A stretch of 64,000 bases of DNA from a phage: NCBI GenBank assembly GCA_012747475.1, contig GCA_012747475.1_3928.1; one strand, written 5' to 3'. How positions within the stretch are numbered: position 1 is the stretch's first letter; the number at the start of each line of letters is the position of its first letter. Positions 3,975-49,231 of this stretch are shown in pieces. The notes under the pieces are model-generated. The model searched no databases, had not been told where the DNA came from, and was given only the letters and a program-made list of their open reading frames with translations. The translations under genes and the position numbers were made by a program.

Positions 3975-4523
3975 ATGAAGAAATTGATTCTAGGCTTGTG
4001 CTTAATGTTTACAGCACACTTATCTTATGCAGTTGACTGCCCAGAGCTAACAATTAGCCAAAAAGTAAACATGTTAAAAGCTTACCAGTATGGTGAGAAT
4101 AATATGGGGAAAGGCTGGGGTATTACTCTAGCAGCTATAGCCTTACAAGAGTCAGAGTTAGGTCTGAAGGTAGAGAATAAAAAGACCCACGACTATGGTA
4201 TTTTCCAGAATCACTTGAAGACTGTTGTAAAGCGTAACAAAATTAGTCCTAATGTGGCTAAAAAGAAACTCTTAAAAGACTTTGACTATGCAGCAAAAGA
4301 GACACATAAAGAGCTTGAGTTTTGGACTAAGGTGCATGGTCACCCAAAGTCAAAGAAGACTTTACAAAAAGTTTTAGCATCATATAATGCTGGGTATTCG
4401 TACAAAATCCCTAAAGCTAAGAAATACTCTCAAGATGTCTATAACAATATGAAAGTTATCGCTCAATGTGAATTTGCAACAAACATTTCTAAGGTAAATC
4501 ATGAAAAAATTAAGAAAGTCTGA
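3975..4523 (+). CDS. secreted lytic transglycosylase-like protein
   Basis: signal peptide MKKLILGLCLMFTAHLSYA; SLT-like motif ALQESELG...DYGIFQ. Confidence 0.45.
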   Translation: MKKLILGLCLMFTAHLSYAVDCPELTISQKVNMLKAYQYGENNMGKGWGITLAAIALQESELGLKVENKKTHDYGIFQNHLKTVVKRNKISPNVAKKKLLKDFDYAAKETHKELEFWTKVHGHPKSKKTLQKVLASYNAGYSYKIPKAKKYSQDVYNNMKVIAQCEFATNISKVNHEKIKKV

Positions 4524-5196
4524 TGAAGTCCTGTGCCATGCTTATGACTTGCATCCTCATGAGTTAGGTCTTGATTCCTGTGTATGGACTCCAGAACAGT
4601 GCAGGGATTTTGAAGACACTGCAAGAGAAGTTGTATGTTCACTTGAAGAGTTCCACACATCAGAACCAATTGTGAACGTTGTGGACAAAGAGACTGGACA
4701 GGCTATAGGTGTAAGACGTGACAGTTTAGTCATAGTCAATAAAGACCTTGTAGAAAAAGGTAACCTCATCTTAGCAGATATTGATGGTGTTCTTACAAAT
4801 TTTAATCACGAAGATTGCTCAACGGAACTGATTGATGGTTCATTTTCACAGTACACTAATTTGCTTGATTCTGTAAGTGCAAAACCAACGTATGTTTTCA
4901 ATATTATTGATGCAATCTCTAATCATACTGCTATTGGACTCTTGACAGCAAGAGGTGAATCTCAGAGAGTACCTACTGAGATGTTTTTAAGGCATTACAT
5001 AGAGCATGATTACATGCTTTTTATGCGTGGTTTTGGAACTAACTCTATAAGTGCAGAAAGTTTGAAAGTGAGGATGATTCAGTCTTGCATTCTTCCTTAC
5101 TTTAATATAGTATGCTTTATAGAAGATACAGAGAAGAATGTTCAGAAGGTAAACAGAATCCTTCCACACATTAAAACCATGTTAGTTAAACATTGA
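4501..5196 (+). CDS. HAD-superfamily phosphatase/nucleotidase-like protein
   Basis: HAD motif I DIDGVL (LILADIDGVLTNF); no kinase P-loop. Confidence 0.35.
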   Translation: MKKLRKSDEVLCHAYDLHPHELGLDSCVWTPEQCRDFEDTAREVVCSLEEFHTSEPIVNVVDKETGQAIGVRRDSLVIVNKDLVEKGNLILADIDGVLTNFNHEDCSTELIDGSFSQYTNLLDSVSAKPTYVFNIIDAISNHTAIGLLTARGESQRVPTEMFLRHYIEHDYMLFMRGFGTNSISAESLKVRMIQSCILPYFNIVCFIEDTEKNVQKVNRILPHIKTMLVKH

Positions 5197-26774: not shown

Positions 26775-26851
26775 CTCTGTTTAGCTCAGCTTGGTAGAGC
26801 GTTCCGTTTGGGGCGGTAAGGCCGGAGGTTCAAGTCCTCCAACAGAGACCA
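26775..26851 (+). tRNA. tRNA-Pro (anticodon UGG)
   Basis: hand-parsed cloverleaf; T arm GGAGG-TTCAAGT-CCTCC; CCA encoded. Confidence 0.65.
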
Positions 26852-26858
26852 AATTAAT

Positions 26859-26936
26859 GTTCCAGTAGACAAAATGGTAAAGTCACCACTCTTTCAAAGT
26901 GGATATTTGAGGGTTCAAATCCCTTCTGGAACGCCA
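26859..26936 (+). tRNA. tRNA-Glu (UUC)
   Basis: acceptor GTTCCAG/CTGGAAC; anticodon loop CTTTCAA; CCA encoded. Confidence 0.65.
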
Positions 26937-26942
26937 GTTTTG

Positions 26943-27016
26943 ACAGAAGACCAATTACAGCAAACTTAATCTTATTCATCTGAAGGTAAATCGGACAAAG
27001 AAGAGATTTGGTCTGG
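26943..27016 (+). repeat. structured spacer element, copy a
   Basis: 5' box ACAGAAGACCAATTACAGCAA, 3' box TTGGTCTGG; ends pair. Confidence 0.6.
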
Positions 27017-27027
27017 TCATTAAGAAT

Positions 27028-27104
27028 TGCGGGTATAGAGAAAGGGCGTCTCACATGTCTCATTAGCATGGTATCGGCAGGTTCGACTCCTGCACCCGCC
27101 TCCA
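27028..27104 (+). tRNA. tRNA with CAU anticodon (Met or Ile2), 1:72 mismatch
   Basis: T arm GCAGG-TTCGACT-CCTGC; anticodon loop CTCATTA; boundaries uncertain. Confidence 0.5.
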
Positions 27105-27109
27105 AATTT

Positions 27110-27174
27110 ACAGAAGACCGTTTACAGCAATATTTATTAAATTTTTAGCGGAAAAATTGAAAGATACGGTCTGG
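27110..27174 (+). repeat. structured spacer element, copy b
   Basis: ACAGAAGACCGTTTACAGCAA ... ACGGTCTGG. Confidence 0.6.
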
Positions 27175-27187
27175 TAATACTAAACAT

Positions 27188-27264
27188 GGTTAGGAAGCAC
27201 ATAAGGCATGTGCGGTCGCCTGTTAAGCGAATGGCACAGGGTTCGAATCCCTGACTAACCGCCA
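27188..27264 (+). tRNA. tRNA-Asn (GUU)
   Basis: T arm CAGGG-TTCGAAT-CCCTG; anticodon loop CTGTTAA; CCA encoded. Confidence 0.6.
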
Positions 27265-27333
27265 AATTTAGGAGAGAAGCGATTGCTCACCGATTTGTAA
27301 GGTGCAAGTCCTTAGCCTGAATAGAAATTAAAT

Positions 27334-27421
27334 GTGTCGTTATCCCGTAGATGGTAGCGGTGGGGACTGTAAATCCCTTGTCATTGAGACTCGGTAGGTT
27401 CGACTCCTACACGGCACACCA
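27334..27421 (+). tRNA. tRNA-Tyr (GUA), long variable arm
   Basis: acceptor GTGTCGT/ACGGCAC; loop CTGTAAA; 15-nt variable arm; CCA encoded. Confidence 0.65.
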
Positions 27422-27426
27422 ATAAA

Positions 27427-40346: not shown

Positions 40347-40744
40347 GACTCTTAAACAGACACAGCTTTGTAGTAAAGCGTAAAGTCTCTGAAGACGGTT
40401 ATTACAATGATGATGGTGATTGGGTAGCTTCACAAGATATTGTAGAGGTTAACTGTAAAGGTAATATCCAGCCATATATCAAAGGTTCTGTAAAGAATGG
40501 TACACAGATTGCTTTACCGGAAGGTATCAGGCTTACCGATACAAGAATCCTGTATACTACATATAAACTTAGAACTTCAGATGATGTAGAGTGGAATGAG
40601 TCTGACATTGTTATGATTGATGGTCATGAGTATGAAGTATTTATGACTATGGATTGGTCACAGCAATTAGCCCATACGTCCCATTATGAATATATCATTA
40701 TTAGAAGGGATAAAATGAATGCAGTTAGAAACAGCAGAACTTGA
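40343..40744 (+). CDS. head/tail completion protein (putative)
   Basis: ORF track. Confidence 0.45.
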   Translation: MRLLNRHSFVVKRKVSEDGYYNDDGDWVASQDIVEVNCKGNIQPYIKGSVKNGTQIALPEGIRLTDTRILYTTYKLRTSDDVEWNESDIVMIDGHEYEVFMTMDWSQQLAHTSHYEYIIIRRDKMNAVRNSRT

Positions 40745-41318
40745 AAAAGGTCTAGTTAGAACCTTAGTGGATGTTATTGGTCACAGACTAGCTCGTGATA
40801 AAAATAATAGACCAAACGTAATTAGAGCTTACCCTTCTGATAACTCAAATGACAAAGGTTTAAAACCTGACCAGCCATTTATTACCGTATATTGTCAAGA
40901 TGCTGCAACACCTTATGGTTGGGTTCTTGATAAGTTTGTTGAGGATGATGTAGTTTGCTACAGAATTGCTTTTCAGATTCCTGTACTAATTACGGTGAAT
41001 GGTAAAGGTGCTCACAGTATTATGCTTGAGCTTAAACAACGATTAGAGATGAGTTCAGTCAGAGATTTAATTCTTGAAGAGACAGGAGCTACAGTTCTAG
41101 ACACTGGAGCTATCCCAAATGACTACACTTATCTTAATACAGATTTCGAAAATTCTGCACCTCTTGTTGTAACTCTTGTAAAAAATTCAGTCCTGAAAGA
41201 TGAACGTGGAAGTATTATTGAGCGTGTCATTGTTGATGGTGAATTAGTTTACGAAGAAGGACAAGAGCCACCAGAATATACTATCCATCTAGATGTAGAC
41301 TCCAAAGGGGTAAAATAA
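40719..41318 (+). CDS. tail completion protein (putative)
   Basis: ORF track. Confidence 0.45.
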   Translation: MQLETAELEKGLVRTLVDVIGHRLARDKNNRPNVIRAYPSDNSNDKGLKPDQPFITVYCQDAATPYGWVLDKFVEDDVVCYRIAFQIPVLITVNGKGAHSIMLELKQRLEMSSVRDLILEETGATVLDTGAIPNDYTYLNTDFENSAPLVVTLVKNSVLKDERGSIIERVIVDGELVYEEGQEPPEYTIHLDVDSKGVK

Positions 41319-42671
41319 ATGTGGAATCCAATTGTTAATGTAGATATTACATTGAACACCGCAGGAACTACAAGAGAAGGTTTTGGGCTGCCACTATTTT
41401 TAGCTTCAACAGATAACTTTGAAGAAAGAGTCCGTGGTTACACTTCCTTAACTGAAGTTGCTGAAGATTTCGATGAAAACTCTGCTGCATATAAGGCTGC
41501 TAAACAACTTTGGAGTCAGACTCCTAAAGTAACTCAGCTTTATATTGGTAGACGTGCTATGCAGTACACTGTATCAATTCCTGATGAGGTTACTGAGAGC
41601 ACCGACTATTCTTTAACTGTAGCTGTGAGCGGTGGAGTTTCTCAGCCATTCCAGTACACTTCACAGTCAGAAGATACTGCTGAGAAGGTGCTACAGCAGC
41701 TTAAAACTCAGATTGAAGCAGAACCTTCTGTAAAAGACCTTGTTACTGTCAATGTAACTGGTGCTGGCGGTTCAGCAACAATGGTAATCACCAAAGCTGG
41801 TGACAATGACTTCGTGAAGGTTACCACTACAGCACAAACAGTGTCAATTGCAAGTACAACTGCTGACACAGCATCGACTGCTCTGGCAGCTATTGAGGCT
41901 TATTCAACTGACTGGTATTTCATTGCAGCAGAAGATAGAACTCAACAGTTTGTCTTAGCAATGGCTTCTGAGATTCAAGCTCGTAAGAAGATTTTCTTTA
42001 CAGCTAACTCTGATGTAACAGCCCTACAAGGTACAGAATTAGCTAGTGCAAATGATGTTCCAGCACAGCTTGCTAAGAGCCAGTACACTCGTACCGTTTG
42101 CTTGTGGCATCACACAGCGGCAGAAGACTATCCAGAAATGGCATACATTGCTTATGGTGCTCCGTATGATGCAGGTTCAATTGCTTGGGGTAACGCACAG
42201 TTAACTGGTGTAGCTGCTTCTCTACAGCCATCTAATCAGAGACCTCTGACAAGTATTCAGAAGTCAGCTTTAGATGCACGTCACTGTAACTTTATTGACC
42301 TTGATGGTGGTGTTCCAGTGGTTCGTAGAGGGATTACTTCTGGTGGGGAATGGATTGATATTATCCGTGGTGTTGACTGGTTAGAATCAGACCTGAAAAC
42401 TTCTCTGAGAGACTTGCTAATTAATCAGAAGGGTGGTAAGATTACTTATGATGATACTGGTATTACCCGTATTCGTCAAGTCATTGAAACCTCTCTGCAA
42501 AGAGCAGTCAACAGAAACTTCCTGTCATCTTACACAGTTAATGTTCCTAAAGCCTCTCAAGTTGCTTTAGCAGACAAGAAAGCTCGTATCCTGAAAGACG
42601 TTACCTTCTCAGGTATCTTAGCAGGGGCTATCTTGGATGTTGACTTGAAAGGTACAGTGGCTTACGAATAA
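41319..42671 (+). CDS. tail sheath protein (putative)
   Basis: 450 aa directly upstream of small tube-sized gene; gp25/J-like baseplate genes downstream. Confidence 0.55.
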   Translation: MWNPIVNVDITLNTAGTTREGFGLPLFLASTDNFEERVRGYTSLTEVAEDFDENSAAYKAAKQLWSQTPKVTQLYIGRRAMQYTVSIPDEVTESTDYSLTVAVSGGVSQPFQYTSQSEDTAEKVLQQLKTQIEAEPSVKDLVTVNVTGAGGSATMVITKAGDNDFVKVTTTAQTVSIASTTADTASTALAAIEAYSTDWYFIAAEDRTQQFVLAMASEIQARKKIFFTANSDVTALQGTELASANDVPAQLAKSQYTRTVCLWHHTAAEDYPEMAYIAYGAPYDAGSIAWGNAQLTGVAASLQPSNQRPLTSIQKSALDARHCNFIDLDGGVPVVRRGITSGGEWIDIIRGVDWLESDLKTSLRDLLINQKGGKITYDDTGITRIRQVIETSLQRAVNRNFLSSYTVNVPKASQVALADKKARILKDVTFSGILAGAILDVDLKGTVAYE

Positions 42672-42686
42672 TAGAGGTAAATTGGA

Positions 42687-43133
42687 ATGGCTATGTATCA
42701 GCAATATTCCCCTAAAGACGTTGTGTGTAGCTGGAATGGTATTGCCATTGAAGGCTTTGCCCCAGACTCATTCTTACGTCTACAGAGAACATCACCACTT
42801 GTGACACCAGTTGTAGGTGCGGGTGGTCAAGTTGCTCTGACAAGAAATGCAGACAAGACAGGTACTATTGAGATTGAGCTAATGCAGACTTCTCTCTCTA
42901 ACCAGATGCTTTCTGCAATTCAAGCTAAACAAGACAATATGGAACTTGAAGAAGATATCTCTTCTAACTTCGTAATCTACGACCCATCAGGCTCTGTTCT
43001 GGCAACTGGTATTAATGCTTGGTTGCAGGAATTACCGCAGATTGAACTTGGTCGTGACCAGAACTCTAAAACTTGGATTTTTGGTTGTGAGAAGCTAGAC
43101 TACACTTCTACAATTCCAGCGTCAAGTGTTTAA
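42687..43133 (+). CDS. tail tube protein (putative)
   Basis: 148 aa after sheath; strong terminator follows. Confidence 0.55.
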   Translation: MAMYQQYSPKDVVCSWNGIAIEGFAPDSFLRLQRTSPLVTPVVGAGGQVALTRNADKTGTIEIELMQTSLSNQMLSAIQAKQDNMELEEDISSNFVIYDPSGSVLATGINAWLQELPQIELGRDQNSKTWIFGCEKLDYTSTIPASSV

Positions 43134-43144
43134 TAAATCCTATA

Positions 43145-43178
43145 AGGGGGAGACTTTAAAAGGTCTTCCCCTTTTTTG
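43145..43178 (+). terminator. intrinsic terminator after tail tube gene
   Basis: 9-bp stem GGGGGAGAC/GTCTTCCCC then TTTTTTG. Confidence 0.75.
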
Positions 43179-43206
43179 TTTCTTTTAAAAGTATTAAGGA
43201 ATCACA

Positions 43207-43605
43207 ATGAAAACAGAATCTAGAGTAATTAATGGTAAGAAAGTAAATATCGTTCTGCTTGGGGCAAGAGATGGTATTAAGATGTCTATGAAGTTGGGTA
43301 AAATTGTTGTTCCAACCTTTGCACAGATGCTGTCAAGTCTGACTGATAAAGACAAGAAAGAAGCTCCAATGGTTCCATTTAAAGAACTTGTTGAAGCTTG
43401 TTTTGACAGAATTGAAGAAATTAACCTTGAAGAAATGGCTACATTACTATTTCAAGGGGCAACTGTCGATGACTTCCCACTTAATATTGATACGTACTTC
43501 CAAGCAAACTACGGTGAGTTTATTGATTACTTAGCATTTGCGCTGGAGGCAAACTTCGGAAGTTTTTTCGAAGCAAGCATTTTCAAAAGCCTAACTTCTC
43601 AGTAA
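43207..43605 (+). CDS. tail assembly chaperone (G-like, unshifted product)
   Basis: 132 aa between tube and tape measure; slippery site near 3' end. Confidence 0.6.
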   Translation: MKTESRVINGKKVNIVLLGARDGIKMSMKLGKIVVPTFAQMLSSLTDKDKKEAPMVPFKELVEACFDRIEEINLEEMATLLFQGATVDDFPLNIDTYFQANYGEFIDYLAFALEANFGSFFEASIFKSLTSQ

Positions 43606-43846
43606 ACATGGGTAACACTCTACAGACACCACTAACTGATGCTGCTGTAGAGGCAACCTATGAAGAAGCAGACGAGATGAAATTTGTGCTTGCTATTTAT
43701 GGTATGGAAGGGTGTAAAGAAACACTTGACCAACTCTTTGCTATGACATTCTCTGATTTATTATCATTGAGACAATTTCTTGAGATTCAGAGGTCGTATA
43801 AAGAGGAAATTGCTTACAACGAACTTAGAAGAGCAGGAAAAATGTA

Positions 43847-43847
<1 letters not shown>
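43207..43847 (+). CDS. tail assembly chaperone, -1 frameshift fusion product (GT-like)
   Basis: fusion of 43207..43569 with -1 frame continuing to stop at 43847. Confidence 0.5.
43563..43569 (+). promoter_or_regulatory. -1 programmed ribosomal frameshift slippery heptamer T-TTT-TTC
   Basis: zero-frame AGT TTT TTC; -1 frame open through ATG 43608 to 43847. Confidence 0.6.

Positions 43848-49231
<5,384 letters not shown>

Follow-up and report, generated by a model that had tools for sequence, protein, structure and literature searches.

We analysed a 64,000-nt stretch of phage DNA (hereafter the window; assembly GCA_012747475.1, contig GCA_012747475.1_3928.1) in which two overlapping open reading frames (ORFs) for tail assembly chaperones occupy positions 43207 to 43847. 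By comparison with related sequences, this locus very probably carries the G/GT-type programmed -1 ribosomal frameshift of the Felix O1-like (wV8-type) tail assembly chaperone genes. ORF1 (43207-43605, + strand, as for all elements of the locus) encodes a G-like tail assembly chaperone, the zero-frame product, of 132 amino acids (aa) and 14.8 kDa. ORF2, as called mechanically from the ATG at 43608 (43608-43847; 79 aa, 9.1 kDa), lies in the -1 frame relative to ORF1. Within ORF1, the slippery heptamer T_TTT_TTC (U_UUU_UUC in RNA; 43563-43569) stands in phase in the X_XXY_YYZ pattern. A slip at this site would continue into a -1-frame segment, the T part (43569-43847; 92 codons and a stop), and yield a predicted GT-type fusion, join(43207..43569, 43569..43847), of 213 aa and 24.3 kDa.

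Sequence reading and translation of all frames gave AGT (43561-63), TTT (43564-66) and TTC (43567-69) as the zero-frame codons at the heptamer, just as the initial annotation had described them. The distance of 36 nt that it gave from heptamer to ORF1 stop holds to the end of the stop; the spacing to the stop codon itself is 33 nt. The -1 frame is open from 43527, following a TGA at 43524, to 43847, and overlaps ORF1 by 79 nt. After the slip it reads CGA AGC AAG CAT TTT CAA AAG CCT AAC TTC TCA GTA AAC ATG..., and its first stop is the TAA at 43845-43847, so that the passage through ATG 43608 without a stop, also described earlier, was borne out. The fusion is heavier than the approximately 21 kDa first estimated. 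Its junction falls between ...ANFGSFF and RSKHFQKPNFSVNMGNT..., and the junction peptide of the 24-kDa species is ...NFGSFFRSKHFQK... The predicted tryptic junction peptide ends in ...EANFGSFFR and is specific to the -1 shift, the zero-frame counterpart being ...EANFGSFFEASIFK.

This arrangement of frames exceeds chance expectation. In window ORFs of at least 100 aa, in-phase X_XXY_YYZ heptamers occurred at 0.004 per codon, that is, about 0.10 expected in the 26-codon overlap, and the heptamer at 43563-43569 was the sole one among 64 in-phase heptamers whose -1 frame continues for 50 codons or more after the zero-frame stop. On the + strand of the whole window, TTTTTTY occurs just four times.

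Profile searches assigned both ORFs to tail assembly chaperones, in agreement with the initial annotation. ORF1 belongs to PF21822 (Phage_TAC_15; E 1.2e-19, 71.5 bits against a cut-off of 22) and to phrog_1613 (tail assembly chaperone, E 7.9e-49), and the ORF2 residues from ATG 43608 match phrog_4963 (tail assembly chaperone, E 2.8e-55). A third profile, phrog_3840 (158 positions), aligned unbroken through the junction, fusion residues 1-151 matching profile positions 6-157, and scored higher on the fusion (E 8e-48) than on ORF1 alone (E 6e-43). This continuity suggests that some family members have been deposited as read-through or fusion sequences. A protein search with the conceptual fusion returned ORF1-type proteins of 124-136 aa in 92 of the 92 matches listed, with no full-length fusion entry among them, and thus gave no direct database support for the fusion. 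A sequence search of the Protein Data Bank with the ORF1 family profile gave no match at E up to 1.

We then compared 58 related loci: six GenBank records (Meda, Pr103Blw, phiEa21-4, Michonne, SUSP2 and SE5), four loci from public assemblies (L007-L010), which were reached through distant ORF1 homologues from the conceptual-fusion search, and 48 IMG/VR loci, which were gathered through ORF1 alignment and range in identity from 100% down to 27%. TTTTTTC or TTTTTTT was in phase within the overlap in every locus except one, a prophage described below (L007). The heptamer NNT-TTT-TTY was kept in phase in all 48 IMG/VR loci, where the -1 ORF runs 57-91 codons past the ORF1 stop and the +1 frame just 1-21 codons. 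The same in-phase heptamer and -1 ORF were present in phiEa21-4, SE5, Michonne, SUSP2, L008 and L009. In L008, a TAG directly precedes the heptamer in the -1 frame, so that a shift could take place only at the heptamer or after it.

When ORF1 sequences were grouped at 60% identity, 14 lineages were obtained, all with NNT-TTT-TTY and with AGT, TCT or ACT as the preceding codon. Elsewhere in the same genes, phenylalanine is encoded by TTT in 48% of cases, and serine and threonine codons end in T in 43%; independent codon choice would yield the pattern of the 14 lineages with a probability of roughly (0.2)^14. These figures indicate selection on the nucleotide pattern in addition to the conservation of the amino acids Ser-Phe-Phe. 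The IMG/VR collection relied on two peptide patterns, one of which, NF[GS]SFFE, favours loci with Ser-Phe-Phe, a point against the evidence; the pattern leaves the codons unconstrained, and the most distant loci do not contain it. Conservation was also visible in direct nucleotide comparison: a blastn search with an 801-nt query aligned only 43552-43592, the heptamer and the 23 nt after it, to the Erwinia Kolesnikvirus phages (92.7% identity).

The overlap shows the signature of dual coding. Codon-wise comparison of 35 unique ORF1 sequences revealed pairwise synonymous differences of about 0.25 before codon 117 (43555), which drop to 0.03-0.09 between this codon and the stop. Translation of the -1 frame beginning at the heptamer would be expected to produce such a drop; translation that starts only at ATG 43608 would not. 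Further downstream, the -1-frame T-part peptides of 16 divergent loci align over approximately 80-100 residues with the common pattern ...Y..xKExL..L..MTL.D... The tetramer T_TTC at 43581-43584 was considered as the main slip site and rejected, as its conservation does not go beyond Ounavirinae and both L008 and L009 lack it.

The exceptional locus L007 is a prophage of Buttiauxella noackiae (GCA_000737905.1, JPRU01000001.1, locus 4001-4986). Its 126-aa chaperone gene lacks the heptamer and reads TCA TTC TTC AAA instead. Directly after it lies a separate gene for a protein of 201 aa, the N-terminal half of which is a second chaperone-like domain and the C-terminal half T-like. This product aligns through the predicted junction with E 5e-13 (NFGSF--FRSKHFQKPNF versus NFGVFLSFVVKPFVKPDF). 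An in-frame homologue of this kind shows the G-T fusion architecture to be the functional entity, and L007 appears to have reached, by duplication, a solution that needs no frameshift. No sheath-sized gene was called in the 4 kb of sequence upstream of the L007 locus.

Four explanations of the locus were weighed. If the two ORFs were independent genes, ORF2 would be translated only from ATG 43608, for example through termination-reinitiation coupling, and the heptamer would be incidental. The ATG lies 2 nt after the ORF1 TAA, many deposited records, including the RefSeq entries of wV8 and Felix O1, list two separate chaperone coding sequences (CDS), and phrog_4963 models a 79-aa protein beginning at the methionine of 43608. 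Against this, the ATG has no Shine-Dalgarno (SD) sequence: its predicted duplex with the anti-SD is -0.1 kcal/mol, compared with -5.1 to -12.6 kcal/mol at 16 neighbouring gene starts, and ORF1 itself starts behind the SD sequence AAGGA (-6.1 kcal/mol). In the near-identical locus L020 (IMGVR_UViG_3300045988_004167; 99% ORF1 identity), ATA replaces the ATG, and the -1 peptide reads ...FSVNIGNTL..., which shows the start codon to be dispensable even within the genus. Mooglevirus has a methionine at a different, downstream position of the T part, and no ATG, nor any equivalent in-frame start, was found near the corresponding position in Kolesnikvirus, L008, L009 and nearly all distant lineages. 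Since the start codon is missing in most relatives, a fusion is the only form in which the full T part can be produced throughout the family. The suppression of synonymous change spans 43555-43600, upstream of the ATG, and the nucleotide-level conservation of the heptamer in 14 lineages and the in-frame fusion of L007 also speak against separate genes. Taken together, ORF2 is probably not an independent gene, and we give the two-gene explanation only a small chance, although some independent or re-initiated translation of ORF2 may occur.

Transcriptional slippage, in which RNA polymerase would add an extra U at the T6 run (43563-43568) and so join ORF1 and ORF2 in some of the mRNAs, would produce the same change of frame by a one-base insertion, and the T run is homopolymeric (T6, or T7 in four lineages). 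In bacteria, productive transcriptional slippage, for which insertion sequence (IS) elements and Thermus dnaX are examples, usually calls for at least about 8-9 identical bases in a row; the run here is T6 in the window and in 10 of the 14 lineages and T7 in the rest. Moreover, the run always stands in the phase for tandem tRNA slippage, its wobble T is kept through three different codons (AGT, TCT, ACT), and the last base is C in 10 of the 14 lineages, which limits the run instead of extending it. Slippage of the polymerase is possible in principle and unlikely here, its chance being slighter than that of separate genes. The slightest chance, close to nil, falls to an absence of any recoding, with the overlap due to coincidence or gene decay and the -1 ORF upstream of ATG 43608 untranslated. 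About 0.1 in-phase heptamers are expected per 26-codon stretch, and a single genome alone would be weak evidence; the conservation in 14 lineages, the dual-coding signature and the conservation of the T-part protein in the -1 frame effectively refute this explanation.

Several further observations weigh against a programmed ribosomal frameshift and concern mainly stimulatory elements. The prediction of a downstream stimulatory structure, which the initial annotation had proposed as a check, was negative: seven single-sequence folds revealed no hairpin or pseudoknot 5-9 nt downstream of the heptamer, and RNAalifold on eight divergent sequences revealed no consensus structure downstream of it. 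The 61 nt at 43570-43630 fold with only -3.4 kcal/mol (z = +1.2), and the relatives are likewise unremarkable. A search of 43100-43900 against Rfam at E up to 1 gave no relevant match, just two sub-threshold matches on the terminator upstream of ORF1. The SD-like GGAGG upstream of the heptamer, which is discussed below, is not universal, being absent in Kolesnikvirus and others. In the literature, we found no experimental demonstration of the fusion protein for any Felix O1-like phage. To these are added the two points already named, the proximity of ATG 43608 to the ORF1 stop and the two separate genes in many of the GenBank records listed. The result on downstream structure is consistent with the low-level, stimulator-poor G/GT paradigm (PMC5009743). 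In Escherichia coli, H_HH.U_UU.Y motifs are among the most efficient, are used in IS elements and are under-represented in genes, and U_UU.U_UU.C shifts at >0.1% without a stimulator (Sharma et al., PMC4066793).

A hairpin at 43607-43662 was rejected as a canonical stimulator, since it begins 37 nt past the heptamer and is conserved only in the closest genera; it is not kept in Kolesnikvirus, L008 and L009. The fold of 43570-43670 that contains it has -24.5 kcal/mol (z = -2.1). According to the fold prediction, its basal stem, CAUGGGU/ACCUAUG, sequesters the ORF2 AUG, and its inner stem shows paired synonymous changes (CCCCG/CGGGG in Michonne versus CCCCA/TGGGG in SUSP2). The heptamer itself lies within a predicted 8-bp palindromic hairpin, CUUCGGAA-GUUU-UUUCGAAG, at 43554-43573. 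Conservation of the sequence that codes for NFGSFFE probably accounts for this hairpin as a by-product, and the hairpin would melt once a ribosome occupies the site. The scan for terminators picked out 43543-43559 as well, with the T run after it.

The SD-like GGAGG at 43545-43549 (+ strand), 13 nt 5' of the heptamer, is a candidate stimulator of the dnaX type. Pairing with the anti-SD yields -9.3 kcal/mol, a rare strength in this region: of the 19-nt windows in 41319-46075, just 0.6% attain -9 kcal/mol. SD-like stimulators act 6-17 nt upstream of the slippery site (PMC4066793). Of 15 representative sequences, 8 have a comparable motif between -18 and -12; as GGAGG or AGGAG, 11-13 nt upstream, it is built from lineage-specific codons (CTG-GAG-G, AAG-GAG-A or CGG-GAG-A). 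A test of GAG versus GAA usage for selection on the element gave only a marginal P of about 0.055, with codon positions that are not strictly homologous. We put the chance that GGAGG works as a dnaX-like enhancer at roughly even.

The window also carries 25 clustered tRNA genes at 26775-32142, including one for tRNA-Phe(GAA) at 31141-31216. The anticodon loop of this tRNA is CUGAAAA (A36-A37-A38), and it reads both slippery codons. The cluster further includes tRNA-Ser(GCU) for the preceding AGU, tRNA-Arg(ACG) for CGA, the first codon of the -1 frame, and tRNA-Glu(UUC) for the next zero-frame codon. That shift efficiency is set by the upstream SD-like element together with the phage tRNA-Phe(GAA), and not by downstream RNA structure, is a tentative idea that we regard as doubtful.

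On the frameshift reading of the locus, most ribosomes would end at the ORF1 stop and produce the 132-aa chaperone. A minority would slip back by one base with two tRNA-Phe on the UUU-UUC of U_UUU_UUC, one on UUU in the P site and one on UUC in the A site, a slip made possible because both tRNA-Phe(GAA) can re-pair from UUU-UUC to UUU-UUU. The slipped ribosomes would read the -1 frame to 43847 and produce the 213-aa fusion, which would have its N-terminal 121 residues in common with the chaperone and end in a T extension of 92 residues. On the analogy of gpG/gpGT of lambda and E/E+E' of P2, the G part would form a coat on the tape measure protein, whose gene follows directly downstream, the T part would bring in the tube protein, and a fixed low ratio of fusion to chaperone would control tail assembly. 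By the same analogy, both chaperone products would be needed for building the tail and missing from the virion.

The comparative evidence points to a frameshift that is real and ordinary, and that has already been predicted or annotated in sister phages. The record of Salmonella phage Meda (MH586731) has a joined CDS at the homologous site, named 'Tape measure chaperone frameshift product', and in Citrobacter phage Michonne (NC_028247) the RefSeq note 'ribosomal slippage (47149)' gives a coordinate inside the homologous heptamer. The genome papers of Moogle (PMC4319497) and Michonne (PMC4591319) mention the chaperone frameshift. Michonne, Moogle and Meda share with the window an ORF1 of 75-99% identity, the same T_TTT_TTC at homologous codons, the -1 direction and the gene order, and nothing of substance differs. 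By contrast, the nearest record, KP869100.1 (99.9% identity), and many of the other listed records annotate the ORFs separately or as hypothetical proteins. Another literature match for Felixounavirus, frameshift and chaperone (PMC6669636) proved irrelevant, as its frameshift is a mutation in the host gene rfaK.

Among the better-known systems, gpG/gpGT of lambda resembles the window in its two overlapping ORFs between the major tail gene and the tape measure gene, its -1 shift, the absence of a need for a strong stimulatory structure, and a long product that shares the N-terminus of the chaperone (Levin et al. 1993; Xu et al. 2004, 2013, 2014, as summarised in PMC5009743). It differs in having no detectable sequence similarity, the window proteins belonging to another Pfam tail assembly chaperone family, PF21822, and in its tail, which is non-contractile in lambda and contractile in the window phage. 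The lambda slippery sequence is G_GGA_AAG, compared with U_UUU_UUC in the window. The E/E+E' genes of P2 are like the window in that they are a myovirus chaperone pair between tube and tape measure genes with a -1 frameshift, and unlike it in that they belong to an unrelated protein family. The efficiency of the shift in P2-like phages is reportedly 2-3 fold higher than in lambda (PMC5009743). E. coli dnaX has an SD-like element 5' of its heptamer, as does the window, where GGAGG at 13 nt falls within the 6-17 nt range. Unlike the window, which has none at stimulatory distance, dnaX has a downstream hairpin, the product of its frameshift is shorter than its zero-frame product whereas that of the window is longer, and about half of the lineages compared here have no SD-like element. 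With regard to the G/GT criteria of Xu, Hendrix and Duda (2004), we found the characteristic gene position, an overlapping second ORF without initiation signals, an in-phase slippery site, conservation in divergent homologues and membership of a chaperone family.

The chaperone region is 98-99.9% identical to those of wV8-type and Felix O1-like phages of the genus Felixounavirus, with matches in 298-300 phage records, and the window is a wV8/Felix O1-like myovirus of this genus. Profile searches gave the gene order tail terminator, sheath, tube, intrinsic terminator, ORF1, ORF2, tape measure and Dit-like. This order and the conservation in 14 lineages bore out the position between tube and tape measure and the G/GT geometry that had been proposed initially. 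The tail terminator gene (40719-41318) precedes the tail sheath gene (41319-42671, + strand; phrog_205, E 2e-125), the presence of which implies a contractile tail. The tail tube gene (42687-43133, + strand) matched phrog_280 (E 1.2e-47) and PF11681 (KPP10_Orf10 / Phage_Tube_PhiTE). In the gap between tube gene and ORF1 lies a strong intrinsic terminator (43144-43183, + strand) with a 13-bp stem (43144-43173) containing six G-C pairs and a T tract; a terminator is annotated at the homologous place in phages Meda and Michonne. This terminator suggests that the chaperone and tape-measure genes are transcribed below the level of sheath and tube, via read-through. The tape measure protein gene (43847-46075, + strand; phrog_4036, E 0; PF20155 TMP_3) starts with an ATG that overlaps the stop codon of the -1 ORF, and is followed by the gene for a Dit-like protein (46075-46872). 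Within the tape measure gene, A_AAA_AAG, the most shift-prone heptamer in E. coli, stands in phase at 44134-44140; its -1 frame ends after five codons, so any shift there would only truncate the tape measure protein.

Public names for ORF1 homologues conflict: 'tape measure chaperone', 'tail assembly chaperone', 'tape-measure protein' and 'hypothetical protein' are all in use, as are 'head closure protein' (phage C600M2) and 'Hc1 head...' (a UniRef name). As for the names that refer to head closure, they are probably annotation errors of the off-by-position kind. In the 147-kb record GU169904.1, 'Staphylococcus phage SA1', positions 74253-75053 are 97.3% identical to the chaperone region of the window, and this record looks like a chimeric or contaminated assembly.

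The value of the finding lies mainly in annotation: the locus should be described as one chaperone gene whose product is extended by a -1 frameshift, not as two CDS. The biology is not new, the G/GT frameshift of long-tailed phages having been textbook material since 1993-2004. For the whole Phage_TAC_15 family, as sampled by the 14 lineages, the comparative data narrow the shift site down to one heptamer, and the Buttiauxella prophage provides a natural frameshift-free control. If the SD-like motif and the phage's own tRNA-Phe(GAA) do set the efficiency of the shift, both elements would be features absent from the lambda paradigm, and the tRNA would let the phage tune the ratio of chaperone to fusion during infection.

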